Origin: Alphaproteobacteria bacterium
Lineage (GTDB): Bacteria; Pseudomonadota; Alphaproteobacteria; Rs-D84
Reading direction: 5' to 3'
NCBI GenBank assembly: GCA_015062485.1
Contig: SUUO01000003.1
Location: forward strand, 28,026 to 92,025
Length of the DNA: 64,000 bases
The notes below the pieces were generated by a model that saw only the letters and a program-made list of their open reading frames with translations, was not told the DNA's origin and did not search any database. This document shows, one piece after another, positions 4,332 through 54,627 of the stretch; positions within the stretch are counted from its first letter, which is position 1, and the number at the start of each line of letters is the position of its first letter. The position numbers and the translations under genes are program-made.

Positions 4332-4628
4332 TTTCCTTTCTCCTGTTGTTATCAATCCAACGCACCCGCGTCAGATAATCAAAAACCACCATTCATCAGG
4401 TGGTCAGGAGGTTGGAAACAATCATCGGAATTGTGTCGCTTATTCAATATATTCGCAACCCTCCTGACGACAAATATCAGGAGTTTAAATTTACCGTCCG
4501 CAAGACAGATATCCATTGCGAACGCCGATGCACGGGTTTCCACACCCCATTATGACAAAAACCGCCATAACAAGTATATTATAGCGAATTCTTTCAACTT
4601 AGGCAAATACTAAGATAAATAAAAATTA
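4332..4628 (-). promoter_or_regulatory. leader module copy 1 (promoter + conserved structured 5' leader, shortened variant)
   Basis: Read on - strand: -35 TTGCCT (4601-4606), 17-nt spacer, -10 TATAAT (4578-4583). A/T motif at 4613-4628. Key 7-mers 4413-4419 (tGGAAac) and 4536-4542 (gtTTCCa). Lacks the internal T1 hairpin. Confidence 0.75.
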
Positions 4629-5595: not shown

Positions 5596-6327
5596 TTACC
5601 GTATTTCAAACACCGCAGACACACCGACCGACACGTCTGTATCACGACTGACGATTGTACCGGCGGCATCCATTGTGGCGGAGACTTCTAATTTTGCCGC
5701 ACGCATTAAATTAGACATCGGACGCACCACATCACTGGTTTGCGTACCATATGACACCGCCAACAATTTTCCCGCACGCTTGCCATCGCCCGCCGCCAGG
5801 GCATCTGCACGCGTACGCGCGTTTTCAACCGCACGCGCCATACAATCTTCGACGATTGGCTTTAAAGCCTCTGGACTGGTGTACATACGCAAATCTTCGG
5901 AAAAGACATTGGTCTGTCCCGCAAACTGGGTCAGAATTTTTTCGATTGTTTCGATATTGTTTGCCGACACATCGACCGCGATTGTTGTTTCGATACCCAA
6001 TGTCACAGATTTTTGTTCATCACGATTCCATTCGGTCTTTTCATAAGAATTAAATTGCGTGGTCTGCATTTGCACATCTTGCGTTTTCAGAAATTCTGTT
6101 ATTTCTGCAACCTTGGCCGTTGCCATTTTCACGGACACCGCCGCCGACTTGTCCAACGTTGTCACACGCAGTGTAATTGCCGTTTTATCACGCGGTGCCG
6201 TCGTCAGGCATTCCCCCGTCGTCGCAATCGTGCGCGGCTCGCTTTTACGTTCCAGCGCCCCAAATATCAGCGCCAACACCGCCGCCGTTCCGATAACTGT
6301 TCCAATCCAGGTTAATGATTTTTTCAT
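5596..6327 (-). CDS. SIMPL domain (DUF541/BP26-like) periplasmic protein
   Basis: Signal/TM anchor, then the typical SIMPL pattern (ITLRVTTLDKSAA...; C-terminal VSVGVSAVFEI). Confidence 0.75.
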   Translation of the reverse strand: MKKSLTWIGTVIGTAAVLALIFGALERKSEPRTIATTGECLTTAPRDKTAITLRVTTLDKSAAVSVKMATAKVAEITEFLKTQDVQMQTTQFNSYEKTEWNRDEQKSVTLGIETTIAVDVSANNIETIEKILTQFAGQTNVFSEDLRMYTSPEALKPIVEDCMARAVENARTRADALAAGDGKRAGKLLAVSYGTQTSDVVRPMSNLMRAAKLEVSATMDAAGTIVSRDTDVSVGVSAVFEIR

Positions 6328-7574: not shown

Positions 7575-7604
7575 TAAAAAATCCCGCCAATGGCGGGATT
7601 TTTT
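7575..7604 (-). terminator. intrinsic terminator after leuS
   Basis: ATCCCGCC aat GGCGGGAT flanked by an A6 run and a T run. Abuts the leuS stop codon. Confidence 0.85.
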
Positions 7605-9999
7605 ACTTTTTCACAACAAAATTTACCAATTTCTTTGGGACAACAATTGTCTTGATAATCGTTGCGCCATCTAACTTGGCACCCAATGCACTTTTTGCCA
7701 TTTCAACCAATGCATCTTCGGCCACGTCCGCCGGCGCAACAAATTCCGCACCACGTTTACCGTTAACGGACGCAACAATTGTCATCTCGGTCTCAACCAG
7801 TTTCGCCGCATCAAACGTTGGCCAATCTGACAACGCCAGCATTTCATCGTGTCCCAATTTTTCCCACATTTCTTCGGTCAAATGTGGTGCAAATGGATTT
7901 AACACGCGAACCAGCGTTTCGTACGCCGCCCGCGGCATACCACCCGAAAAGGCATTGATATATTCCATCATCGCAGAAATCGCCGTATTAAATTTCATAT
8001 TTTCAACGCGCTCTGTCACATCTGCGATTAACTTGTGCATCAGGCGTTCCTGGGCCCCGGTCATTGGTACATCTGTCAAATTATCAGACATATTTTCCAC
8101 ACGTTTCAAGAAACGCTGAACCCCGGCCAGTGCACCATCGGTCCATACCGCGTTATTTTCCCACGGCCCCAGTGACAACACCGAAACACGCCCCGCATCG
8201 GCCCCAACAGAATCAACCAAATCCGCCACCATAAAACCATTCCCACGCGACTTGGACATTTTATAGCCATCATTTCCCATCAACAACCCCTGGGCGGTAC
8301 GCTTTGCATATGGCTCTGGCGTATTAACCAATCCCAAATCATACAATGCGTGATGCCAAAAGCGCGAATAAATCAAATGACGTGTGTTATGCTCGTGCCC
8401 ACCGTTATAGTGTGTAACCGGCATCCAATTTTCCATCTGCTGACGCGAACAAAATTCTTTATCATTCTTTGGATCCAGATACCGCAAATAATACCACGAC
8501 GAACCCGCCCATCCCGGCATAGTATCCGTTTCACGTTTTGCAGGCGCCCCACAGTGCGGACACGTTGTATTTACCCAATCGGTTGCACGCGCCAATGGCC
8601 CTTCGCCATCATCGGTTGGTTTATAGTCCACCATATATGGTTGCATAATCGGCAATTCAGATTCATCAACCGGTACCCAGCCACATTTTTCACAATAAAC
8701 CATTGGGATTGGTTCACCCCAATACATCTGGCGCGAAAAACCCCAGTCTTTTAATTTATATTTTGTTGTGCCACGTGCAAAGCCGTGTTCCGTACCGTAT
8801 TTAATCGCCGCGGCAATGGCTTCTTCTTTGCCCATACCGTCCAAGAAAGATGAATTTATATGCGCACCGTCGCCTTCCCAAACCTTGTCTGGTTCACCAC
8901 CGGCTAAAACCGGGATAATTTCCAGACCGAATTTTTTCGCAAAGTCCCAGTCACGACTATCGTGCGCCGGCACCGCCATAATTGTCCCATACGCATAATC
9001 AACCAATACATAGTCCGATGTGAACACCGGGATTTCTTTGCCGGTATATGGATTCAATGCCATTATACCCTCTAAACGCACACCCGTCTTTTCCTTGGTC
9101 GCGTCTGTCCGTTCAATCTCAGATTTTGCGGCAGATTCTTTGATATACGCACGTACCGCATCCGCGTTTTTAATTTTACCTTCGTCCAGCCATTTTGCCA
9201 ACAACTTGTGTTCCGGGGCAATTACACAGAACGTCACACCAAATATAGTATCTACACGCGTTGTATAAACCGTCATAACATCATCCCCAACACGGAAATC
9301 TACATCCGCGCCGTGCGATTTACCAATCAGGTTTACCTCATCTTTTTTAATACGTTCATCAAAATCAACATCTTTTAAGCCGTCTAATAATTTATCGGCA
9401 TACTTAGACAACGCCAAATTCCACTGAACCTTCATTTTCTTTTCGACCGGTCCGTGACAGCGTTCACAACAACCATCTTCTAACTCTTCATTGGTCAGGT
9501 TTGTTTTGCACGCCGGACACCAATTCATCGGCAGGGCAGATTTATACGCCAACCCCGCCTTGTAAAACTGAATAAACATCCATTGTGTCCATTTAACATA
9601 TTCCGGATCAGACGTTGCAACACGTGTTTCCGGACTGACCGACCAACCAACACGATCAATCATTTTTGAATATGCTTCTATCAATTCCTTTGCAACGTCT
9701 GCCGGATGGCGTCCAATCTTGGTGGCATAGTGTTCACCGGCAATCCCCATTGCATCAAAACCCATTGGGAACAAAACATCATATCCACGTGCACGACGAA
9801 ACCGGGCCAAGACATCGATTCCCGAATAATTCATCATATGTCCCGCGTGCATCCCGGCACCGGACAAGAACGGAAATTCCACTAACGTATAAAAACGAGG
9901 CTTCGAACCATCATCTTTCGGTACAAACGCGCGTGCATCGCGCCAGCGTTTTTGCCATTTTGCCTCACGTTCGTGAATTTTTTTGATATCATCTGCCAT
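7603..9999 (-). CDS. leuS: leucine--tRNA ligase
   Basis: GMHAGHMMNY (HIGH-type) and KMSKSRGN motifs, plus CP1 editing region. 798 aa. Confidence 0.95.
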   Translation of the reverse strand: MADDIKKIHEREAKWQKRWRDARAFVPKDDGSKPRFYTLVEFPFLSGAGMHAGHMMNYSGIDVLARFRRARGYDVLFPMGFDAMGIAGEHYATKIGRHPADVAKELIEAYSKMIDRVGWSVSPETRVATSDPEYVKWTQWMFIQFYKAGLAYKSALPMNWCPACKTNLTNEELEDGCCERCHGPVEKKMKVQWNLALSKYADKLLDGLKDVDFDERIKKDEVNLIGKSHGADVDFRVGDDVMTVYTTRVDTIFGVTFCVIAPEHKLLAKWLDEGKIKNADAVRAYIKESAAKSEIERTDATKEKTGVRLEGIMALNPYTGKEIPVFTSDYVLVDYAYGTIMAVPAHDSRDWDFAKKFGLEIIPVLAGGEPDKVWEGDGAHINSSFLDGMGKEEAIAAAIKYGTEHGFARGTTKYKLKDWGFSRQMYWGEPIPMVYCEKCGWVPVDESELPIMQPYMVDYKPTDDGEGPLARATDWVNTTCPHCGAPAKRETDTMPGWAGSSWYYLRYLDPKNDKEFCSRQQMENWMPVTHYNGGHEHNTRHLIYSRFWHHALYDLGLVNTPEPYAKRTAQGLLMGNDGYKMSKSRGNGFMVADLVDSVGADAGRVSVLSLGPWENNAVWTDGALAGVQRFLKRVENMSDNLTDVPMTGAQERLMHKLIADVTERVENMKFNTAISAMMEYINAFSGGMPRAAYETLVRVLNPFAPHLTEEMWEKLGHDEMLALSDWPTFDAAKLVETEMTIVASVNGKRGAEFVAPADVAEDALVEMAKSALGAKLDGATIIKTIVVPKKLVNFVVKK

Positions 10000-10139: not shown

Positions 10140-10316
10140 CATATGCCCCGGACATAGTGATGTGGCTTTGGCTTAGAACACCAAAACATTGAACGAAATG
10201 GCTATCACTTTATGTCCCGACCAAGCGGTCGGGATGTCGTTGCTCGCAAGACAACGAGGTCATCAATGTTTGACTGTTCTAACTCCCGACCACCACTTGC
10301 TATGGTGGTTTTTTTA
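10140..10316 (+). promoter_or_regulatory. candidate structured leader/attenuator or small RNA upstream of PAP2 gene
   Basis: TCCCGACC (10215-10222) and TCCCGACC (10284-10291) can both pair with GGTCGGGA (10227-10234). The second copy overlaps the terminator stem ACCACCA/TGGTGGT (10289-10309), which is followed by a T-run. Confidence 0.45.
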
Positions 10317-10339
10317 TTACAATCGAAAGGAAAGAAAAT

Positions 10340-11975: not shown

Positions 11976-12297
11976 GTGTTATTATTTATTTTTATTATTG
12001 TATTTTTTCTCTATACATTTTATAATCACGGTGTCAGCGGGATTTTCCACTGATGGGGTGTCAGAACCCGTGCATAACGCGTTTGGAATCGAAATCCAGC
12101 GCGCCATTGGCGTGTTTTTTCGTGTATTTTCCAAACGATAAACAAAAAAACTCCTGAACACACATAGGTGTCAGGAGGGTTGCGAATATATTGAATAAGC
12201 ACACAATTCGTTATGATTGTTCTGAACCTCCTGACCACTCGTTTATGCGCGGTGGTTTTTGTTTTTTCGCGAAGAACAAAGAAAGGGAGTGATACAT
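11976..12297 (+). promoter_or_regulatory. leader module copy 2 (only + strand copy)
   Basis: -35 TTGTAT 11998-12003, 17-nt spacer, -10 TATAAT 12021-12026. Key 7-mers 12061-12067 (tCAGAac) and 12219-12225 (gtTCTGa). T1 hairpin GCGCC att GGCGTG + T6. Confidence 0.8.
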
Positions 12298-34164: not shown

Positions 34165-34241
34165 TGGCACGCCCTACAGGATTCGAACCTGTGACCTGCA
34201 GATTAGAAATCTGATGCTCTATCCAGCTGAGCTAAGGGCGC
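34165..34241 (-). tRNA. tRNA-Arg (anticodon TCT)
   Basis: rc reads GCGCCCTTAGCTCAGCTGGATAGAGC...CAGA-TTTCTAA-TCTG...GGTTCGAATCCTGTAGGGCGTGCCA. Cloverleaf with encoded CCA. Confidence 0.95.
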
Positions 34242-34305: not shown

Positions 34306-34557
34306 TTGCAAAACACAACTATTTTGTGTATAATAAGCATTGAATCCGATGGGAATTGGATTCGGGGCTTTCAAACCCCATAGGACGCGGTGCGTTTGCA
34401 TCGTAAAACTGTTTATGGTGCATCGCACCGTTATTGCCTGACTATGTTGGTCGGGTGTCTGTTGTTATATAATAGGGGTCTCCCAAAAGCAACAGGGTCA
34501 TTCGTCTTATGATTTTGAAAGCACCCGACCGCCAATTCCACGGCGGTCTATTTTTTT
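34306..34557 (+). ncRNA. candidate structured RNA / riboswitch-like leader with own promoter and terminator
   Basis: TTGCAA (34306-34311), 17 nt, TATAAT (34329-34334). Hairpins GAATCC/GGATTC, GGGG/CCCC, CGGTGCG/CGCACCG. 9-bp helix GGTCGGGTG (34449-57)/CACCCGACC (34522-30) overlaps terminator GACCGCC aattccac GGCGGTC + T7 (34527-34557). Confidence 0.5.
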
Positions 34558-34573
34558 ACGGAGACAAATATCA

Positions 34574-42016: not shown

Positions 42017-42093
42017 TGGTCGGGGCGAAAGGATTCGAACCTTCGACATCTTGGTCCCAAACCAAGCACTCTACCAGACTGAGCTACACCCCG
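42017..42093 (-). tRNA. tRNA-Pro (anticodon TGG)
   Basis: rc reads CGGGGTGTAGCTCAGTCTGGTAGAGTGCTTGG-TTTGGGA-CCAAG...GGTTCGAATCCTTTCGCCCCGACCA. Confidence 0.95.
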
Positions 42094-46057: not shown

Positions 46058-47326
46058 TTACTGATTCATAGACGCAAAGAAATCATCATTCGTTTTCGTC
46101 ACACGTAATTTATCCAACAGGAATTCCATTGCCTCTAACGTGCCCATCGGATTAATTATGCGACGCAACACATATGTCTTGGCCAGTTGTTCTTTGCCCA
46201 CCAACAGGTCTTCCTTGCGTGTGCCGGACTTGGTAATATCAATCGCCGGATAAACACGTTTATCAGACAATTTTCTGTCCAAGATGATTTCACTGTTACC
46301 GGTACCCTTGAATTCTTCGAAAATAACTTCATCCATCTTGGACCCCGTATCAACCAATGCCGTCGCAATAATGGTCAGTGATCCACCGCCCTCGATATTA
46401 CGTGCCGCACCAAAGAAACGTTTTGGACGCTGCAACGCGTACGCATCAACACCACCGGTTAAAACCTTGCCACTGGATGGAACACAGGTATTATACGCGC
46501 GACCCAAACGTGTAATAGAATCCAACAAGATAACAACGTCTTGTCCGGCCTCTACCAAACGTTTTGCTTTTTCAATAACCATTTCTGCGACCTGAATATG
46601 ACGTGCCGCCGGTTCATCAAATGTCGAAGAAATAACCTCTCCCTTGACACTGCGTTGCATATCGGTCACCTCTTCGGGACGTTCATCAATCAGCAAAACG
46701 ATTAACTTAACATCCGGATAGTTTGTCGCAATAGAATGCGCAATATTTTGCAGCATAACCGTCTTACCGGTACGTGGCGGTGCAACGATTAACGAACGCT
46801 GTCCCTTACCCGTTGGGGAAATCAGGTCAATAACACGCGCAGACAGATTACGTCCTTTGTCTGTGTCGGTTGGGACCTCCATCTGTAACTTCTCGTCCGG
46901 GTACAGTGGCGTCATATCATCAAACGACACACGATGTTTCAGTTTTTCAGGATTGTCGCCATTAACGCGTTCAATCGTTTCCAACGCGAAATAGCGTTCG
47001 GTTTCCGCCGCCGGGGCTTGAATTTGCCCCTCGACATAATCACCGGTTTTCAAGCCGTATTTTTTAATTAAATTTGGCGACACATACAAATCATCCGGCC
47101 CCGCCAGATAGTTTGATTCCGGCGCACGCAAGAAACCAAATCCATCCTGCATCCGTTCCAGAACACCATCACCAATCAACGTCACCTTTTTATCCGCGGC
47201 GAACACACGCATAACCGCAAAACGCAGTTGCTGTACATTCAGTTGCGCTGGATTTTCAATTCCCATATCTTCTGCCATTTTCAGCAGTTGCTGGGGCGAT
47301 TTCGCCTTTAACTCATTAATATGCAT
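46058..47326 (-). CDS. rho: transcription termination factor Rho
   Basis: N-terminal RNA-binding domain, Walker A APPRTGKT, and the RecA-like ATPase. 422 aa. Confidence 0.97.
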
Positions 47327-47957: not shown

Positions 47958-47987
47958 CAAAAAAATCCCCCATTTGGGGGATTTTTT
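47958..47987. terminator. bidirectional intrinsic terminator
   Basis: A8-ATCCCCC attt GGGGGAT-T6 between ssb and 47986..48912. Confidence 0.85.
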
Positions 47988-48912
47988 AATCAATAGTGTA
48001 ATGACACATTCCACCGCCCGATATATATGTACCATATTCATCTTTAAATGTACCAGATTCCCCACCGCCAACATCAACATAACAATCGGTTGGATTTATT
48101 GCACCGGGTGCACTGGTCGCATTTTCCGGCGAAACATCGTGATCACCCGGTAATGCATTGCACGCCATATTACCACCAGAAACAGTCATCGTTTCCACAT
48201 CCACCCTAACTTTGATTCCACCTGGGCAATAATCACCAGGTACACATTGCTCTTCCAATAGTTCCCCCGTATTCGTATCAATAGTTACATAATATCCAGA
48301 ATTAGAATATCCATAACAATCGCTTATCTCTGTGCGCGCACCATCAGAATGTATCAAAATTGGATGAAGCTCGTCGCACGGCACCACAATCCCATACATA
48401 TAAATATAACCATCTGGCAGACCTCCTGAAAAATCTGCACAAACATTCAATGCTTCGTCCATTGTTTCAAACCACATTCCGTTTTCAAATTCATCCTCTG
48501 TCGCGGGGATCCGTACAAGCACATAACCTTCATTACATTCCCCCATTGCTCTAAAACCAATAATCTGGCCATTAGTATCAAAATACGTAACAACATAATA
48601 GTTTCCTTTCTCGTCATAAAAATAACGAGACAAAGTAAGATCTTGACACTGTTCCAAACTTGTTAGCCCATTATTCACAAAGACATCACACGCGAATTGC
48701 CCATAATCAACATCACAAGAATCTTGATATTGCGTATTATCCTCGGGACACGGCTTGCATTCTGTTGCATCAGGCACATCATTATACGTATGTCCCGGAC
48801 ACGGCTCACACACACCAGACGACGTAACATAATAACCAACACCACATATTTCGGCATATCCTGGTGCGGTAAAAGCAAATAATAATAAAACCGTAAAACA
48901 AATCTTTTTCAT
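47986..48912 (-). CDS. secreted Cys-rich protein with ephrin-receptor-like Cys repeats and S-type C-terminal motif
   Basis: Signal peptide MKKICFTVLLLFAFTAPGYA. CGVGYYVTSSGVCEPCPGHTYNDVPDATECKPCPEDN. C-terminal GTFKDEYGTYISGGGMCHY. Confidence 0.8.
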   Translation of the reverse strand: MKKICFTVLLLFAFTAPGYAEICGVGYYVTSSGVCEPCPGHTYNDVPDATECKPCPEDNTQYQDSCDVDYGQFACDVFVNNGLTSLEQCQDLTLSRYFYDEKGNYYVVTYFDTNGQIIGFRAMGECNEGYVLVRIPATEDEFENGMWFETMDEALNVCADFSGGLPDGYIYMYGIVVPCDELHPILIHSDGARTEISDCYGYSNSGYYVTIDTNTGELLEEQCVPGDYCPGGIKVRVDVETMTVSGGNMACNALPGDHDVSPENATSAPGAINPTDCYVDVGGGESGTFKDEYGTYISGGGMCHYTID

Positions 48913-49226
48913 TTTTGTCTTTCTCCTGTTTGTTATAAAAAACAAAACCACCGCGCATAAACGAAGTGGTCAGGAGGTTCAGAACAATCAAGAAGAATTG
49001 TGTGCTTATTCAATATATTCGCAACCCTCCTGACACCTATGTGTTCAGGAGTTTTTATTTATCGTTTGGAAAGTACACGAAAAAACACGCCACCGGCGTG
49101 CCGGATTTCGATTCCAAACGCTTCTTGCACGGGTTCTGACACCCCATTATGGCAAAACCACCATAACATACTAATTATAACCGATTGTTTCCATTTGCGC
49201 AAATACTTATAGAAATAAAAGTTTAT
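48913..49226 (-). promoter_or_regulatory. leader module copy 6
   Basis: Read on - strand: -35 TTGCGC (49197-49202), 17-nt spacer, -10 TATAAT (49174-49179). A/T motif 49209-49226. Key 7-mers 48979-48985 (tCAGAac) and 49133-49139 (gtTCTGa). T1 hairpin CACGCC ggt GGCGTG + U6 at 49080-49100. Confidence 0.8.
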
Positions 49227-49268
49227 CCTAGTGCTTCTACTCTACACTAACCACTTACACTAATCACT

Positions 49269-49298
49269 AAAAAACCCGCCGGATGGCGGGATTTTTTT
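49269..49298 (-). terminator. intrinsic terminator after autotransporter gene
   Basis: CCCGCC ggat GGCGGG with flanking A5/T7 runs. Confidence 0.85.
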
Positions 49299-52200
49299 AG
49301 AACCTATACGATCCAGAAACCTTGATATTATGCAACTGCATATCATTATTGTACTGATATCTGTAATCAATACCAAATTGCAGGCCATTTGCAGACAAGA
49401 ATTCAAATCCACCACCAATATTTGCCCACAATGGATCGATTTCTATGTCATATTCGCTGAACACGTTGGCCGATGCAAATTTATATTTCGCAAAATCTGG
49501 CGCACCCAACACATCATATTCAACACCAATTGTCGCATATGGTCTAATCTGGAACCAAGCCGACGGATAAATACGTTTCTGGGCGGTCAAAGAATACCCC
49601 GGCGTCAACATCAAATATCCATCGGATTCAAAATCCATATAATTTTCACCGGCGGCCTTTTCCGTCACATCAAAGCCAAAGTTATAACCCGCGCGCGCAT
49701 ACAAGTTACCAACGACATACTGATTTAACCAATCGTGCATCAGGCCCCATTCCGTCGTCAATGCAAACGCAGTACCCGTTCCATCAATCGTATCCATAAA
49801 TGTCATATGGCGCGTTGTATCAATAAAGTGCATATCCATAAACGCATTACCATACAGGCGGAACTTATGCCCCAACGTCTTCATCAAATATGCCCCCAGG
49901 CCAACATTCGTATCCGCCACATCCACAGATACATTGCCGACAATATTCTGGCCCGGTAAATAGCCCAAATCCATATCATCCGCGTTATCTGATGACATAT
50001 GCGACACACGTCCCGTCAGCCCCAGAATCAATGTATCAGATGACTGCCAATCAAAACCACCCGACAATTCAAAGCGATTACCATACACACGCTTGTCATC
50101 GGTGACATTCTGGCTAAACATACCGAAATCAAAATCCGCCCAGGCTTTCTTTAAATTCCGGTTACGATTCCAGATAAATTCATCAAACATTCTGTCTTCG
50201 AAATTACGGAACGATGTATGTTCATTCAACGCGATTGCGCCCGCAATTTGTTCAATTTCACGTGGCTGAACCAGGCGACTGAACGGCACAAACGCAGCAC
50301 CATTTGCCGTTTCAACGTAATGTTCCATACGGTTGTAAAGTTCCGTCATCAGCGTTTCAACATTTGTACCCTCAAAAATCGCCGGTATAACTTCTATTGG
50401 TGATTTATTAAAGAATCCCATATTCAACAACTGCCCCGCGATAAGGTTATCCAGTGCACCGGCGGCGACATATTCGCCCGCGGTGTATTCTGGCTGGCGT
50501 GCGACAATTGGCTGAATCCGATTATCTTCAATCAAAACCGGCCCACCAAAGCGCGGATCAAACACGACGTAAAGGCTGTCTGCGGCACCACTGTTATCTG
50601 TATCACGCGTTGTGATATAAGCCCCCAAATTGTCCGGATTTAGCGCAACGCACGTCGTATTACCCGCATTACAGAACAACACATTCAAATTACGGATTTT
50701 TTCAATATCACTAAATTCAGATAACCCCTGCTCTGCCTTTAATAACCATATCGCCGTTTCCGCGGATACATTGGACACATCCGTAAAACGCAATCCAATT
50801 TGGCCATCGGCCAAAACATCCGAATTCAGCGCCAACGCACTATATTCCGTCCCAGACATAAACTTGCCATTAACCTGAATCAACGCCGCACCATCGGTCG
50901 CATTTGTAATTTGCCCCAATGTCGCATCATTATTCAAACTGACCGACGACCAATAATTGCGCGTGGTCGAATTAAGGCCCGGCGTTACATTATATGGTAA
51001 TATCGCCGCCAATAACTGACTGTTTGCATCAAATATATAATCACCATCAACCGCCATTTGTTCCAGATTCCAAATCTTGGTTCCGCCAGAGATATTTCCA
51101 TTAACCTCTAAATCCAACCAATTTGTATCCGGATTTGCGGCAATTGTTAAATCCGTCGCATTTATATCGCCATTAACCGTAACATCACTGCTTAAAATCT
51201 GCATAGCGCCAGATGTCTGATTGATTCCCGCGACCGTAACATTCGATGCCGTAATCGTATAATCATCGGCGGTGATTCCGATATCATTATCACGCAAAGT
51301 TCCCGTATAATTCTGATATAAATTGCCGTCCGTTGTTAATTCAGAATCCAATGTCCAGCCCGCGCCATATAACTGAATTGTGCCGCCATCCACAACCAAT
51401 CCAGCCATATCAACAATGTCATCCCCCGAATCCAGGGACACAGAGCCACTATTGCTAAGTGTCGCCATTGTGATGCCGTGCGCGGCATCCAATACCAATG
51501 CACCACTGTTTATAATATTATCAAATGATACTGCATCCGAACTGTCTAACTTGAACGCGGCATAATTGCGGAAAGTATACAAATTATCCACGTCCCCACT
51601 AATGTTATTAAATGTTTCACCAATGAAATTAACCGTCGCCAGTGATACAGATGTGCCAACCGTCATATCGCCATCAATTGTAATATCCCCAGAAATATCA
51701 TACGTTCCAACATTCGAATCGGCAACGAATCCACCGGCGGTCAATCCCGTGGAACTAAATACAACCTCGTCCGACAGTATGTTTAACATCCCCGTCTTGC
51801 CCGTTCCCTGGTTCAAGACGCCCGCAACATTAACCGCGCCACCAAATGTTGCCCCATTCAAAGCATTTAAATTAAATGTACCACCGGTAATATCCATACC
51901 ATATTGCACATCCAACAGATTCGCATCTATATCCGTCAATGCACCCGCAGATTCAATCGCCGTCGCATAAACATCGCCAACCGCATCGATATCTAATTCA
52001 TACGCGGTCGCACCATTTTTCAAAATACCAATATTGATATCATCCCCAGAATTTAAAATAACATACCCATTATTTGTGACATCGGCCAAATCAATCCCGG
52101 CGGCCTTAATATCAAGCCACCCCGCAACAGTCATATCATCAACGATATCAACGTCACCGACCGCGTCTATATCCAAATATCCATTTGGCGCAACCGCCCC

Positions 52201-54627
52201 AGTAATTTGAATATTACGTCCAGAATTCAAATTCAAACGATTACTTTGCCCCAAATTAATCCCACCAAAGATATCTATATCCTTGTCCGTCGCCTGGGAC
52301 ACCAATGAAAACTCAGACGTTCCACCAACAATCAGTCCCCGATTCGCATCATCGGTATCATCAAATGTGATACCACTTTGAATCGATACCCCACCCGTGG
52401 CAACATCCACATTAACCGCATTAACCGTATTAGAATCATTACCATAGACATAAATTGTCCCATTATCCTCGGTCAGGGAATCCACCGACACATCCGTACT
52501 GTGAATTTCAACAGTACCACCTTCCGACGCCAACAAATCCCCACCAATTGTCAAATCGGCCGTTCCCGCCGCATCATTGACAAGGGACAATGGCGTTGGA
52601 AGCGGCCGCCCCTGAAAAACAATGCGATTGGCCGCGCCAGTCGCCGTAACATCACCACCAATATTGAATGATGTTGCCATAAAATTCAACGTACGCGCCG
52701 TTGTCCCCGCGGTGGTTGCCAAAACATCACCACCAACATTTACCGCACCATTTACATCAAATTGGAAGCCCATCGGTCCATATGCCGTTACATAAATATC
52801 CCCATCACCGGTGGTCGCACCTGTGGCGTTTGCCACAACATCACCGCCCACATTCATCACATATCCGTTATTATCGGCCGGTCCACCAACTGTCAAACTG
52901 TGCGTACCAGAACCAATATTTAAAACACCACCGGTAACATTTAATGTACCCGTACCAAATGTATTTTCATCAACCATACTCTGTGCGATATCAATTCCCA
53001 ACAAGCCATTCAGATACGCCGTACCCCCGGCAACATTCACACCGCCCAGTTTAATAGAACTGCCCTGAAAATCAGAACCATCGATTGTTAAATCACTATA
53101 ATTATTTGTAACATTGCCAACAATATTTATCTGACGGCCCGATATGTCTATATCACTGATGATATTCTGATTATTTCCATCAGTAATATCGCCATTAACC
53201 GTCACCAGGCCCGTTGTACCACTGGTGGCCAAGACATCCAATGTTCCACCATTTCCAACAATACCACCGACAGCAACCTGTTGCCCCTGTAATGTCATTG
53301 TACCGCTTGCCACAACATTACCCTCAACATTAACCGCACCCGATGCAATTAAATTTGTCGTTGCACTCGCCGCATCGACCACACCACTTGCGACCAAATT
53401 AGTTGTGGCCCCCAATGCCTCCAACCGCATTGTACCGGCATTATTTTTTACATTTCCAACCGTCAACCCATTCGCCGCCAAATACATATTCGCATTTGCG
53501 TTTAATGTACCATTGCTAACATCACCCGTTGAAAACGCCGAACTATCAACAACTACATCAAAGTTATTTAGATTATTCGCAAAGAATGCCGATGTATTCC
53601 CGCCCAGAACCAAGCTTCCCGTCGTTAACGAGAACGCATTGCCCCAGTCATCTTCGCTATCCACCACCAGATTAAATCCATTTGCCAGGTTCGTTTCACC
53701 CGCCACATCAATTGTTAAAATCCCCCCATTTACAAACGACGCATTATTCGCATCCCCACCATTAACCGTCAATGAATTGGCATTAACGACCATCTGACCG
53801 GCATCATTTTTCATTGTGCCATCAACAACAATATCCGCATCCGATGCATTAATCCTCATCAAGTTACCAGAATTTTCAACATTCCCCGTCGCGTTCAAGT
53901 TGCCGGCAACACCAATATCAAGTGTACCCGCCCCAGTATGAGATATATCTCCAACCTTAATATTTGTTGCGGCAATATCGATTTCTGCGCCCCCGCCCCA
54001 GATATTATTCAACTGTGCAATATTCAATGTATTCGTCGCATTCAGCACAACGGCACTGCCCGTATCTACCGTAACCGCCCCAACATTAATATTATTTGCC
54101 TGTACAGACAACGCACCCGACGTATCAATTGCCCCCGCCAGGAATTCACCATCCGTATTTGTTGTTCCCACAACAAAATTATTAACATCCGTTACGTTAA
54201 ATGTACCCGTATTGTTAATTGTAGACACCGATACATCAAATGTCGCATCATCTGTATAGTTTGAAATATTAAACGTACGCCCACCCGCAATCGTCAATGT
54301 GCCACCAATATCAACATCACCATCAGCCTGTAACGAAAACGTATCAGATACCGCATCACTGATAAACAATGTTCCGCCGGCCTGCTGTGGGATTGGCGTC
54401 ACAAACACACGCATATCACCCGCCACATCCAAAGCCACACCATCGGTCAAGCCGGCCCCATATATCTGCAACGCATTACCAGACTGTACCGCCTTAATCT
54501 CGTCCTCTGATACCGTCACCGTTGTGGCATTAACATTTGGCACATCCGTTACCGGTATATTTTCCGTCGCAGCAAATGCGCCAAACGGCACAAAACCGCA
54601 TATAAAAGCAAGTAATTTCTTTAACAT
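49297..54627 (-). CDS. giant autotransporter (1776 aa): repetitive beta-helical passenger + C-terminal beta-barrel
   Basis: Signal peptide MLKKLLAFICGFVPFGAFA. Long Gly/Asn/Thr/Val-rich degenerate repeats. C-terminal barrel ending ...KVSGSYRF. Confidence 0.9.
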   Translation of the reverse strand: MLKKLLAFICGFVPFGAFAATENIPVTDVPNVNATTVTVSEDEIKAVQSGNALQIYGAGLTDGVALDVAGDMRVFVTPIPQQAGGTLFISDAVSDTFSLQADGDVDIGGTLTIAGGRTFNISNYTDDATFDVSVSTINNTGTFNVTDVNNFVVGTTNTDGEFLAGAIDTSGALSVQANNINVGAVTVDTGSAVVLNATNTLNIAQLNNIWGGGAEIDIAATNIKVGDISHTGAGTLDIGVAGNLNATGNVENSGNLMRINASDADIVVDGTMKNDAGQMVVNANSLTVNGGDANNASFVNGGILTIDVAGETNLANGFNLVVDSEDDWGNAFSLTTGSLVLGGNTSAFFANNLNNFDVVVDSSAFSTGDVSNGTLNANANMYLAANGLTVGNVKNNAGTMRLEALGATTNLVASGVVDAASATTNLIASGAVNVEGNVVASGTMTLQGQQVAVGGIVGNGGTLDVLATSGTTGLVTVNGDITDGNNQNIISDIDISGRQINIVGNVTNNYSDLTIDGSDFQGSSIKLGGVNVAGGTAYLNGLLGIDIAQSMVDENTFGTGTLNVTGGVLNIGSGTHSLTVGGPADNNGYVMNVGGDVVANATGATTGDGDIYVTAYGPMGFQFDVNGAVNVGGDVLATTAGTTARTLNFMATSFNIGGDVTATGAANRIVFQGRPLPTPLSLVNDAAGTADLTIGGDLLASEGGTVEIHSTDVSVDSLTEDNGTIYVYGNDSNTVNAVNVDVATGGVSIQSGITFDDTDDANRGLIVGGTSEFSLVSQATDKDIDIFGGINLGQSNRLNLNSGRNIQITGAVAPNGYLDIDAVGDVDIVDDMTVAGWLDIKAAGIDLADVTNNGYVILNSGDDINIGILKNGATAYELDIDAVGDVYATAIESAGALTDIDANLLDVQYGMDITGGTFNLNALNGATFGGAVNVAGVLNQGTGKTGMLNILSDEVVFSSTGLTAGGFVADSNVGTYDISGDITIDGDMTVGTSVSLATVNFIGETFNNISGDVDNLYTFRNYAAFKLDSSDAVSFDNIINSGALVLDAAHGITMATLSNSGSVSLDSGDDIVDMAGLVVDGGTIQLYGAGWTLDSELTTDGNLYQNYTGTLRDNDIGITADDYTITASNVTVAGINQTSGAMQILSSDVTVNGDINATDLTIAANPDTNWLDLEVNGNISGGTKIWNLEQMAVDGDYIFDANSQLLAAILPYNVTPGLNSTTRNYWSSVSLNNDATLGQITNATDGAALIQVNGKFMSGTEYSALALNSDVLADGQIGLRFTDVSNVSAETAIWLLKAEQGLSEFSDIEKIRNLNVLFCNAGNTTCVALNPDNLGAYITTRDTDNSGAADSLYVVFDPRFGGPVLIEDNRIQPIVARQPEYTAGEYVAAGALDNLIAGQLLNMGFFNKSPIEVIPAIFEGTNVETLMTELYNRMEHYVETANGAAFVPFSRLVQPREIEQIAGAIALNEHTSFRNFEDRMFDEFIWNRNRNLKKAWADFDFGMFSQNVTDDKRVYGNRFELSGGFDWQSSDTLILGLTGRVSHMSSDNADDMDLGYLPGQNIVGNVSVDVADTNVGLGAYLMKTLGHKFRLYGNAFMDMHFIDTTRHMTFMDTIDGTGTAFALTTEWGLMHDWLNQYVVGNLYARAGYNFGFDVTEKAAGENYMDFESDGYLMLTPGYSLTAQKRIYPSAWFQIRPYATIGVEYDVLGAPDFAKYKFASANVFSEYDIEIDPLWANIGGGFEFLSANGLQFGIDYRYQYNNDMQLHNIKVSGSYRF

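Follow-up and report, generated by a model that had tools for sequence, protein, structure and literature searches.

What does the RNA upstream of a gene for a Cys-rich secreted protein do when its segments can pair in more than one way? This question is raised by copy 6 of a leader that recurs in the window, the whole 64,000-nucleotide stretch of DNA analysed here. A preliminary description of seven copies pointed to a Shine-Dalgarno (SD) look-alike (segment B) between two anti-SD-like segments (A and C), followed by a hairpin with a U tract just before the ribosome-binding site (RBS), and proposed gating of translation and/or transcription by alternative folds. The blocks named there, CUCCUGA, (G)UCAGGAGG, CCUCCUGAC, the CCAC..GUGG hairpin and the U tract, were found again at the same positions in 7/7 copies. 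In copies 4 and 5 the middle segment is indeed GUCAGGGGGG, with both pairings kept through G.U, and the hairpin interiors are compensated as described (CGU/ACG in copies 3-5, CG/CG in copies 2, 6 and 7, CCACC/GGUGG in copy 1). What had been missed is that the element begins ~120 nt further upstream, at the TATAAT box at 49179-49174, that it contains a second terminator-like hairpin (49102-49084), and that C, in the fold preferred by thermodynamics, is joined to the 5' GGGGU segment in a long-range helix. The 3' half noted earlier is part of a family of cis-acting structured leader RNAs of 215-270 nt. The parts of copy 6 are the following.

49174..49179, minus strand: TATAAT -10 box, invariant in the 7 copies; the transcript probably starts ~7 nt downstream of it, at the P1 foot
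49146..49167, minus strand: P1 hairpin GUUAUGG...CCAUAAU; 7/7 pairs compensated, 98.6% of cells paired
49131..49145, minus strand: 5' segment GGGGUGU-CAG-AACCC, as local hairpin H5 (GGGU:ACCC) or as 5' strand of long-range P2a
49145-49141, minus strand: GGGGU run, further partner of segment C and ~170 nt upstream of it
49121..49127, minus strand: variable 7-mer CAAGAAG, 5' strand of long-range P2b; 7/7 pairs covary
49063..49120, minus strand: P3 stem, CGUUUGGAA (49120-49112) with UUCCAAACG (49071-49063); covaries and encloses T1/P4 and a U tract
49102-49084, minus strand: T1/P4, a hairpin inside the leader called terminator-like
49045..49051, minus strand: segment A, CUCCUGA; A:B helix 99.7% paired
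49025..49034, minus strand: segment B, GUCAGGAGGG (core (G)UCAGGAGG); pairs with A (state 1) or C (state 2)
49003..49023, minus strand: P6 hairpin UGC...GCA with conserved A/U-rich loop GAAUAUAUUGAAUAA; fits both states
48984..49001, minus strand: J hairpin, ACAAU (49001-48997) with AUUGU (48988-48984); its loop contains 7-mer'
48995-48989, minus strand: 7-mer' CUUCUUG, 3' strand of P2b, in the J loop
48969..48985, minus strand: GUUCUGA-ACCUC, 3' strand of P2a, overlapping segment C
48977-48969, minus strand: segment C, CCUCCUGAC, overlapping the P2a 3' strand
48935..48969, minus strand: T2, intrinsic-terminator-like hairpin CCAC..GUGG (48969-48948) with U-rich tract (U4-G-U6 at 48947-48937)
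48910..48928, minus strand: RBS CAGGAG (48928-48923) and start codon (48912-48910) of the downstream gene
47986..48912, minus strand: downstream gene for a 308-aa Cys-rich protein with signal peptide and Ephrin_rec_like repeat

The sequence CCTCCTGAC occurs 12 times in the window, counting both strands, against 0.07 expected from shuffles. A covariance-model scan recovers seven full leaders (all on the minus strand except copy 2) and two short variants, in which the layout of A, B, C and terminator is kept (10209-10333 and 34431-34571).

4361..4576, minus strand: leader copy 1, 176 bits in the covariance model, without T1
12028..12280, plus strand: leader copy 2, 199 bits
18057..18325, minus strand: leader copy 3, 145 bits, with an additional hairpin inserted in the P6 loop
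25377..25621, minus strand: leader copy 4, 202 bits
45637..45881, minus strand: leader copy 5, 200 bits
57053..57302, minus strand: leader copy 7, 198 bits
10173..10333, plus strand: divergent short variant before a PAP2 phosphatase gene, 27.8 bits; its 5' strand UUAGAACA (10173-80) pairs with UGUUCUAA (10275-82), and A UCCCGACC (10215-22), B GGUCGGGA (10227-34) and C UCCCGACC (10284-91) are followed by T2
34364..34571, plus strand: second divergent short variant, 23.5 bits, with 5' hairpin GGGGCUUUCAAACCCC (34364-79) whose GCUUUCAAA pairs with UUUGAAAGC (34514-22); A GCCUGAC (34436-42), B GGUCGGGUG (34449-57) and C CACCCGACC (34522-30) are followed by T2

More than 200 relatives were found in metagenome-assembled genomes (MAGs) of gut and rumen Alphaproteobacteria (Candidatus Enterousia, order Rs-D84, genomes <1 Mb). 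At least 110 loci lie in genome contigs, almost all from gut Alphaproteobacteria or Ca. Enterousia MAGs, and at least 120 further loci, of the CUCCAAC subfamily, come from metagenomes. When the whole window was compared with the 4227 models of Rfam 15, gathering thresholds gave two tRNAs and nothing else, the leader matching no family; at E <=10 over 48880-49260 there were chance matches only, the top one being mir-737 with 20.9 bits against a gathering score of 60. Work on Enterousia, on Rs-D84 and surveys of structured RNAs yielded no description of the leader RNA. It is a new RNA family, absent from Rfam and from the literature searched.

The pattern used to collect the main-family alignment set (A3) fixed GGGGTGT, AACCC and ACCTCCTGA, so the invariance of these blocks in that set is partly built in; variation within them comes solely from ~20 hits of the covariance model that the pattern did not match, together with the metagenome set. 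The pattern also left out leaders whose spacing is unusual, such as copy 1. Every leader has its own TATAAT box, as in a sigma-70-type promoter (invariant in 7/7 window copies, with a TATAAT-like box at the matching place in most relatives inspected), and T2 is then followed by 40-130 nt to the start codon. Another candidate promoter, inside the leader (TTGCGA-16-CACAAT), was rejected, as its -35 part covaries as the P6 stem (CUCGCG..CGCGG, UGCC..GGCA).

Two folds can be drawn for this RNA. In state 1, GGGGU-G-UNNNAAC and the variable 7-mer pair with 7-mer'-AUU-GUUNNNA-ACCUC across ~150-190 nt, and the resulting long-range helix closes a four-way junction with P3, the A:B hairpin and P6. The helix buries segment C by half and leaves the segment's 3' end free for the T2 base; the CUGAC of C is invariant although unpaired. 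State 1 is the predicted minimum-energy fold of copy 6 (z = -5.15), is recovered by RNAalifold from the 7 window copies alone, and is the minimum-energy fold in 98/113 leaders, with a mean advantage of 9.4 kcal/mol over the best state-2 fold. Across 97 sequences, 96.6% of its cells are paired and 43/49 pairs have changed on both sides (808 cells), values reached by 0/500 shuffles; slid controls are 35-49% paired. In 107/107 leaders the triplet, of which there are nine types, is a perfect complement of its 3' partner, and P6 covaries from UA (49) to CG (23), UG (9) and GC (4), with the stem variants CGCG:CGCG, UGCC:GGCA and CGUU:AACG. G.U pairs are conserved too, column 56/409 being G.U in 88/92 sequences and P3 having 27 G.U, which fixes the strand of the RNA. 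For the CUCCAAC subfamily, a longest-helix test of the long-range helix gave no discrimination, G.U-tolerant 7-mers being common by chance. With 43/49 pairs compensated, state 1 is a conserved, covarying and aptamer-like fold in a 5' leader, a generic property of riboswitches.

In state 2, the 5' segment is folded on itself (GGGU:ACCC), ACAAU and AUUGU form J, and B moves from A to C, while P1, P3 and P6 are common to both folds. Because the same nucleotides of B form both helices, A:B and B:C cannot coexist; J and P2b, in turn, may coexist as a pseudoknot instead of being strict alternatives. The cells of state 2 are 97.4% paired and 10/17 pairs have changed on both sides (0/500 shuffles reach the observed values, and slid controls are 28-54% paired). 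J is found in 98/101 main-family and 71/80 CUCCAAC-subfamily leaders, where a shifted control gives 0 and 4. It is present in 169/181 leaders overall, with swaps from A-U to U-A in ~20 and compensated variants such as ACUAU:AUAGU, GCUAU:AUAGU and ACAUU:AAUGU. Likewise, H5 occurs as GAGGU:ACCUC, GGAAU:AUUCC and CGAGAAU:AUUCUCG.

Across three subfamilies (CUCCUGA, CUCCAAC and UCCCGAC) A, B and C change together, as CUCCUGA/UCAGGAG/CUCCUGA, CUCCAAC/GUUGGAG/CUCCAAC and UCCCGACC/GGUCGGGA/UCCCGACC. B is complementary to both flanking segments in every subfamily, and in L017, L051 and L065 matched insertions are found in B (GGUUCAGG) and C (CCUGAACC). The idea of gating by alternative folds is supported by this complementarity and concerted change. 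SD mimicry, by comparison, finds no support as the defining property, since B of the short variants is GGUCGGGA or GGUCGGGUG and not SD-like. Comparison of the sequences supports a leader RNA that can take two mutually exclusive folds, both maintained by evolution. Nucleotides with two partners are nearly invariant and those with one (the triplet and the 7-mers) covary freely, which in such an alignment is the signature of a switch.

How could such a switch reach the gene? By its sequence, T2 qualifies as a candidate intrinsic terminator, a G+C-containing hairpin directly before a U tract. The four base pairs of its foot are 99.7% paired across 97 relatives, three of them changed on both sides, and the stem has a median of 7 bp with a median of 7 U among the next 9 nt. 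A strict scan for perfect stems under-called T2 (30/115), its stems carrying mismatches, and folding energies were used instead. C abuts T2 in every subfamily: the first C of T2 is the last base of segment C, and the second (48968) is also within B's reach. CC follows C in 110/115 leaders and GG precedes B in 85/115, copy 6 having GU just 5' of its UCAGGAGG core, and B:C reaches 2-4 nt into the T2 arm in 85/114, the overlap spanning just 1-4 nt. With the two 5' C blocked, the median hairpin energy goes from -7.9 to -2.6 kcal/mol, a loss of ~70% of the stability. When B:C was forced in folding, CC paired upstream and not in T2 in 84/113 leaders, and about a quarter of the leaders still formed a complete T2. 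The two folds and the overlap of B:C with T2 amount to two exclusive structures coupled to an expression platform, which is again a generic property of riboswitches.

On balance, we consider it probable that the leader is a two-fold cis RNA acting by attenuation at T2 before secreted-protein genes, in response to some signal. As B usually begins with GG and CC follows C, B:C takes two G-C pairs at the weak foot of T2 and would therefore act as an antiterminator, with A:B and the long-range helix as anti-antiterminators. State 1 would then lead to termination with the gene off, and state 2 to read-through with the gene on. Since state 1 is the more stable by ~9 kcal/mol and A:B already forms while C has yet to be transcribed, state 2 needs a trigger; with state 1 as the thermodynamic default, some signal must favour state 2. 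Candidates for this signal range from a metabolite, a protein or another RNA to a kinetic event in the course of transcription, and the gene context (secreted proteins, function not known) suggests no ligand. A T1-like hairpin is present in 89/115 main-family leaders and absent from copy 1 and most CUCCAAC-subfamily leaders inspected; the internal T1 of most main-family leaders is not accounted for by the model of attenuation at T2.

The preliminary description also held that both flanking segments are complementary to the true RBS. This would allow gating of translation, which could act alongside attenuation: a free anti-SD-like segment, either C when it is held neither by the long-range helix nor by B:C, or A in state 2, would pair with the RBS and block initiation, and a fold burying both A and C would free it. 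At genes behind leaders this holds in part. CAGGAG, whose six bases are complementary to CUCCUG, occurs at 25/35 leader-associated genes versus 8/40 other genes in the same contigs (Fisher p = 8.6e-6), CA stands before the SD core in 36/110 main-family leaders, and when the 3' half of copy 6 is folded alone, CCUG of C pairs with CAGG of the RBS across T2. The RBS does not follow the leader in the CUCCAAC subfamily, however, where a dedicated metagenome scan found AAGGAG 21 times, the predicted UUGGAG only twice and CAGGAG once; nor do the short variants with C as UCCCGACC have a matching RBS. The RBS is located outside, downstream of, all covarying helices, and the enrichment of CAGGAG could have arisen if leader and RBS were inherited together as a unit. 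We consider gating of translation an unlikely account of the leader.

A structured RNA that does not switch at all is, in our view, quite unlikely. Such an RNA would be either a stable sRNA-like product ending at T2 or T1 or a processive antiterminator of the put/EAR type that causes RNA polymerase to ignore both, and the second set of pairings would represent folding intermediates. The strong thermodynamic preference for state 1, the two terminator-like hairpins in series, as expected after a processive antiterminator, and the presence of P1, P3 and P6 in both folds would all agree with it. Yet H5, J and B:C, the helices of state 2, have themselves undergone compensatory changes, it would be hard to see why A, B and C change in concert across subfamilies if there were never a B:C helix, and the CUGAC of C is invariant despite being unpaired in state 1. 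A and C might instead be two binding sites of a trans factor, an RNA-binding protein or a B-like sRNA, whose binding would free B and mask the T2 base as TRAP, PyrR and BglG-type antiterminator proteins do. In every subfamily the two are direct repeats of 7-9 nt, nearly identical to each other; A is preceded by an A-rich linker, and the factor would provide the missing trigger. Single genomes, however, have at least two repeat specificities (CUCCUGAC and UCCCGACC in the window, CUCCUGAC and CUCCAACC in L043, L078 and L095), so several factors would be needed, while the cis-encoded B, being complementary to the repeats, accounts for every one. With no candidate factor identified either, we regard this reading as very unlikely. 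Finally, the many copies, the long-range inverted repeats with variable cores that match within each copy and the one copy on a phage-like contig could recall a repeat acting at the level of DNA (a MITE, an attC-like site or an invertible segment). This is hardly credible and was rejected. In DNA the conserved G.U pairs would count as mismatches. The leaders keep one orientation and a set distance to the start codon that follows, and a promoter lies just ahead of them, with the two arms both behind it; conserved asymmetric loops break up the helices, the copies sit among housekeeping genes, and neither empty sites nor target-site duplications came to notice in passing.

Among the known systems close to the leader RNA are riboswitches whose expression platform is of the terminator/antiterminator kind, such as the purine, TPP and SAM-I classes of Firmicutes. 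Like them, the leader has a multi-helix junction, a closing helix that has its 3' strand in common with the expression platform, two folds that exclude each other, an intrinsic terminator immediately downstream, and invariant two-partner bases beside covarying one-partner bases. Unlike them, it has no assigned ligand and no match among the 4227 Rfam models, its antiterminator strand B is an arm of a hairpin within the sensor, its closing helix spans ~150-190 nt, and each sub-megabase genome has tens of copies, which precede genes for unrelated secreted proteins and not a metabolic pathway. The 1:2 / 2:3 / 3:4 logic of leader-peptide attenuators (trp, his, pheA) is found in A:B, B:C and C plus T2, but the leader has an extra long-range lock and no conserved ORF, with indels that break the frame. 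A leader peptide was looked for after the GGAGG of B and from the AUG in AUGGGGUGU, and was rejected for lack of a conserved start, frame or length. A start codon lies 4-13 nt after the GGAGG in just 70/115 leaders, with ORFs of 5 to 40 codons, several members have ACG or AUU in place of the AUG, and both P6 and the 7-mer region contain indels.

T-box leaders are similar in being 200-300 nt long, in occurring in many copies before functionally related genes and in choosing between antiterminator and terminator. The present leader has no T-box or Specifier architecture and no Rfam T-box match, its variable triplet pairs with its own complement in cis (107/107) and not with a tRNA, and its targets are not aminoacyl-tRNA synthetases or amino-acid genes. 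RAT/BglG-SacY, ANTAR, PyrR and TRAP leaders are also repeated before a regulon and have direct repeats and a few-base overlap of antiterminator and terminator; here there is no RAT hairpin, dual-hexaloop motif or identified cognate protein, and several repeat specificities occur per genome. SD-sequestering switches and thermometers (ROSE, fourU) have anti-SD-like CUCCU segments complementary to the RBS, but in this family the RBS is downstream of all conserved helices, B is not SD-like in the UCCCGACC variants and the RBS complementarity is not kept in the CUCCAAC subfamily. The processive antitermination RNAs HK022 put and Bacillus EAR also consist of a structured 5' leader before terminators; they act as a single fold on RNA polymerase, whereas the second fold of the leader is conserved and touches the terminator.

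ORFs were recovered for 111 of the 115 main-family leaders, all directly downstream on the leader's strand, the other four having no called ORF. The products of the genes behind the leaders are diverse, mostly Cys-rich secreted proteins of at least 18 unrelated families. Pfam and NCBIfam searches with the seven downstream proteins of the window gave the Ephrin_rec_like repeat only, with copy 6 above the Pfam cutoff and copy 5 below it. The neighbours of the copies are housekeeping genes, those for LeuRS, ArgRS, UvrA, transketolase, PFOR and Rho. One leader copy lies on a phage-like contig. If the leader acts as we propose, a gut symbiont with a reduced genome would have tens of unrelated secreted proteins, mostly rich in Cys, under a single control. 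More tentatively, since we doubt it somewhat more than we believe it, the leader could be a true sensor, a riboswitch or a single-factor receptor, through which Rs-D84/Ca. Enterousia bacteria would switch a large part of their secretome, as by a master switch, and which their phages would have borrowed; this same tentative claim would entail, by density, ~30-130 copies per <1 Mb genome, possibly up to about a tenth of all genes.

Bacteria of the Rs-D84/Enterousia group are uncultured gut residents with genomes of <1 Mb and no respiratory chain, and to our knowledge almost nothing is known about their regulation. They appear to be dependent on partners (PMC12306168). One conserved RNA switch before at least 18 unrelated secreted families suggests that the interface with host or partner cells is under single-point control. 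The family also offers hundreds of natural sequences of a nested four-segment switch (5' segment:C and A:B versus B:C), with both conformers visible by covariation and an antiterminator that would need just two stolen base pairs. The covariance model can be used to flag candidate secretome and effector genes in Rs-D84/Enterousia MAGs. Should the leader prove to be a sensor, it would be among the highest-copy structured cis-regulatory RNAs per genome, and would provide a handle on when an uncultured, metabolically dependent gut symbiont displays its surface and secreted proteins.

Against an expectation of 0.07, the window holds 12 occurrences of the 9-mer CCTCCTGAC. They point to seven homologous leaders (minus strand, six; plus strand, one), which can be aligned from an invariant TATAAT box through to the start codon. 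Copy 6 has the following features, of which segments A, B and C, the last hairpin, the U tract and the RBS were read where the preliminary description had placed them:

49102-49084, minus strand: T1, a strong internal terminator-like hairpin (GGCACGCC-GGU-GGCGUGUU plus a U run) inside stem P3
49051-49045, minus strand: segment A, CUCCUGA
49034-49025, minus strand: segment B, GUCAGGAGGG
48977-48969, minus strand: segment C, CCUCCUGAC
48969-48948, minus strand: T2, the final terminator-like hairpin CCAC..GUGG, followed by a U4-G-U6 tract
48928-48923, minus strand: RBS, CAGGAG
48912, minus strand: ATG start codon

Two further details of that description hold as well: GUCAGGGGGG in copies 4 and 5, which keeps the pairing through G.U, and the compensated interior of the last hairpin. 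The element is larger than was reported, and the alignment of the seven copies gives the following order downstream of the promoter:

P1, a covarying hairpin
invariant AUGGGGUGU-NNN-AACCCG
variable 7-mer
stem P3, with T1 inside it in six of the seven copies
A-rich linker, then A, then B
P6, a small hairpin with an A/U-rich loop
CACAAUU and a second variable 7-mer
AUU-GUU-NNN-AACCUCCUGAC, whose 3' end is segment C
T2 and its U tract, the last part of the leader

The leader matched no family in an Rfam search. Directly upstream of copy 6 lies a 1776-aa ORF (49297-54627, minus strand), for which a Pfam search at E up to 0.001 gave nothing; at 49275-49290 it ends in a strong terminator that looks bidirectional.

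In the minimum-energy fold of the whole copy 6 leader (-86.8 kcal/mol, z = -5.15), the 5' GGGGUGUCAGAAC and CAAGAAG have their partners roughly 125-170 nt downstream, in CUUCUUG and GUUCUGAACCUC. RNAalifold on the seven copies alone returns the same long-range helix, in which the triplet and the 7-mers vary in a compensatory way. This first fold, state 1, consists of P1, the long-range helices P2a and P2b, P3, A:B, P6 and T2. Across 97 sequences, in an alignment fitted to a covariance model that itself favours the state-1 structure, 96.6% of cells are paired and both-sided changes occur at 43 of 49 pairs (808 cells); none of 500 shuffles reached these values, and slid controls pair only 35-49%. 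The main alignment was gathered with a pattern that fixed three blocks. Independent of the model-fitted alignment are a MAFFT-based RNAalifold run and the variable triplets, which are perfectly complementary in 107/107 leaders and take nine different forms. Because the state-1 helices contain conserved G.U pairs, the transcribed strand is the gene-sense strand. For 98 of 113 leaders the minimum-energy fold is state 1, with a mean advantage of 9.4 kcal/mol over the best state-2 fold.

State 2 comprises three helices, each sharing nucleotides with state 1: the local hairpin H5 (GGGU:ACCC) takes the 5' strand of P2a, the J hairpin (ACAAU:AUUGU) takes the GU of the P2a 3' strand and holds the complementary 7-mer in its loop, and B:C draws on the whole of B and on the CCUC of C. 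In the same 97-sequence alignment 97.4% of the state-2 cells are paired, with both-sided changes at 10 of 17 pairs, matched by 0 of 500 shuffles. The counts for J, H5 and A/B/C were anchored, outside the model alignment: J is present in 98/101 main-family (CUCCUGA-type) and 71/80 subfamily (CUCCAAC-type) leaders, with 0 and 4 in the shifted control, and has the compensated variants ACUAU:AUAGU, GCUAU:AUAGU and ACAUU:AAUGU. In divergent members H5 reads GAGGU:ACCUC, GGAAU:AUUCC or CGAGAAU:AUUCUCG. Segments A, B and C read CUCCUGA/UCAGGAG/CUCCUGA in the main family, CUCCAAC/GUUGGAG/CUCCAAC in the second subfamily and UCCCGACC/GGUCGGGA/UCCCGACC in short variants, with other matched forms such as ACUCC..GGAGU and paired insertions of GGUUCAGG with CCUGAACC. 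As the three change together, A and C are direct repeats and B is their complement. Positions with two partners are almost invariant, and those with a single partner, namely the triplet and the 7-mers, change freely and are compensated, which is the pattern expected of a bistable RNA. Both folds are under selection. J and P2b may coexist as a pseudoknot.

What the two folds would control is suggested by the junction with T2, which C abuts in every subfamily. CC directly follows C in 110/115 leaders and GG directly precedes B in 85/115 (at least one G in 111), so that B:C could reach into the 5' arm of T2, over 2-4 nt in 85 of 114 leaders and over 3-4 nt in several of the divergent members. The T2 hairpin is weak, with a median of -7.9 kcal/mol, which drops to -2.6 kcal/mol when both 5' C residues are blocked, and a median of 7 of the 9 bases after it are U. 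When B:C was forced, the CC of 84 of 113 leaders found its partner upstream and not within T2. All functional statements on the leader are inferred from sequence. In state 1, T2 would form and the gene would be off; in state 2, T2 would be weakened and the gene on. The antiterminator strand would be locked by both A:B and the long-range helix, and state 2 would be reached only with a trigger. The rho gene (46058-47326, minus strand) lies immediately upstream of copy 5, so Rho-dependent termination is available in this organism.

Translational gating, in which A or C would pair with the true RBS as proposed in the preliminary description, is a secondary possibility. CAGGAG is strongly enriched at leader-associated genes (25/35 vs 8/40 others, p = 8.6e-6), and C pairs with the RBS when the 3' half is folded alone; however, where C is CUCCAAC the RBS is a generic AAGGAG in 21 cases and UUGGAG in only 2. 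The Shine-Dalgarno likeness of B holds in the main family and the CUCCAAC subfamily but not in the short variants of the window (GGUCGGGA, GGUCGGGUG); the conserved property is complementarity and not mimicry. A leader peptide is excluded, as there is no conserved leader ORF.

T1 occupies the same position in copies 2-5 and 7 and occurs in 89/115 main-family leaders; copy 1 lacks it, as do most of the CUCCAAC-subfamily leaders inspected. Should T1 terminate, an RNA of about 90 nt carrying P1, the 5' segment and the 7-mer would be released, complementary to the 3' portion of the full-length leader from which it derives. The window also holds two short divergent leaders:

10173-10333, plus strand: before a PAP2 phosphatase gene
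34364-34571, plus strand: before a 313-aa protein without Pfam match

In both, a 5' hairpin loop pairs just upstream of C, followed by the A:B hairpin, C and a terminator, with UCCCGACC or CACCCGACC as repeats; they follow the same logic with a different interior. A conserved AUAGGGG-UCU-CCCAAAAG element in the second recurs in the fetched locus L061. Two tRNA genes (Rfam tRNA) lie on the minus strand at 34168-34241 (67.9 bits), just upstream of this leader, and at 42020-42093 (66.9 bits).

A search of species-representative genomes with a pattern that covered the two strands of the long-range helix matched at least 110 loci. Gut MAGs make up nearly all of the matches listed; they carry the labels Alphaproteobacteria, Candidatus Enterousia or uncultured Rickettsiales, and their hosts are human, sheep, goat, deer, horse, rabbit, yak and buffalo. 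Ca. Enterousia is a member of the order Rs-D84, whose genomes are mostly <1 Mb and lack the TCA cycle and respiratory chains (PMC12306168). A few matches labelled Bacteroides fragilis and Muribaculaceae have typical leaders and are probably mis-binned contigs, and L013 (Paenarthrobacter) and L105 are chance matches. The covariance model, built on 108 sequences, gave the seven window copies scores of 145-202 bits and also retrieved two weak, shorter window variants (10209-10333 and 34431-34571) and about 20 further divergent copies in fetched loci. A sheep colon locus (L054; JAFVSL010000005.1, MAG RGIG5353) has family copies at 5783-5907 and 7603-7850; it carries the 10209 short variant, one base different in the stretches compared and also at 27.8 bits, and a leader whose aligned 5' portion equals copy 2 save one base. 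Metagenomes yielded at least 120 more loci of the CUCCAAC subfamily, 81 of the 120 passing simple checks. Five scan hits (L112, L113, L120, L135, L139) were false positives: tandem GGTTGGAG/CTCCAACC-type repeats from sediment and other metagenomes, forming long inverted repeats unrelated to the leader.

Downstream ORFs lay on the leader's strand in 111/111 cases recovered, usually 40-130 nt after C. Signal-peptide-like N-termini were found in 96/106 of those of at least 60 aa, which have a median Cys content of 5.9%, vs 1.1% in the window's other long ORFs, and fall into at least 18 BLAST-unrelated clusters. The seven window proteins matched no Pfam family save the Ephrin_rec_like repeat, above the cutoff for copy 6 and below it for copy 5. 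Twelve proteins are not Cys-rich (L003, L014, L017, L020, L045, L055, L059, L069, L070, L072, L075, L076) and have in common an N-terminal motif, (D)I(A/P)S(T)xYV(D/Q), which lies behind the signal peptide and frequently precedes SSKVDTSASANQTMAGTYTV; they appear to be a distinct secreted family under the same leader. A full leader (158 bits) also stands on a phage-like contig:

L111 10367-10596, minus strand: IMGVR_UViG_3300010163_000459

It precedes a 162-aa Cys-rich protein with a signal peptide. Other genes of the contig specify a tail protein, a DnaB-like helicase, a repressor, a head-tail adaptor and a terminase; apparently, a phage of this lineage has brought a cargo gene under the control of a host-type leader.

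In its switch logic the leader resembles terminator-type riboswitches and attenuators, from which it differs in having neither an Rfam match nor a leader ORF, and the features of T-box, RAT and ANTAR systems are absent. None of the papers searched describes it, though it may sit unnamed in a large survey's supplementary list. The leader can be classed as a new RNA family, whose switch is of a known kind but unusual in form. Its nested four-segment design, in which the antiterminator strand is part of the sensor, is unusual, as is the predicted hold of two base pairs on the terminator. Leaders are scattered among housekeeping genes (LeuRS, ArgRS, UvrA, transketolase, PFOR, Rho) at nine per 64 kb in the window and, in the sequence flanking the fetched loci, about one additional copy every 33 kb, a density that suggests, by extrapolation, tens to >100 copies per genome. 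Equally unusual is this very high copy number ahead of an apparent secretome regulon in a reduced genome.
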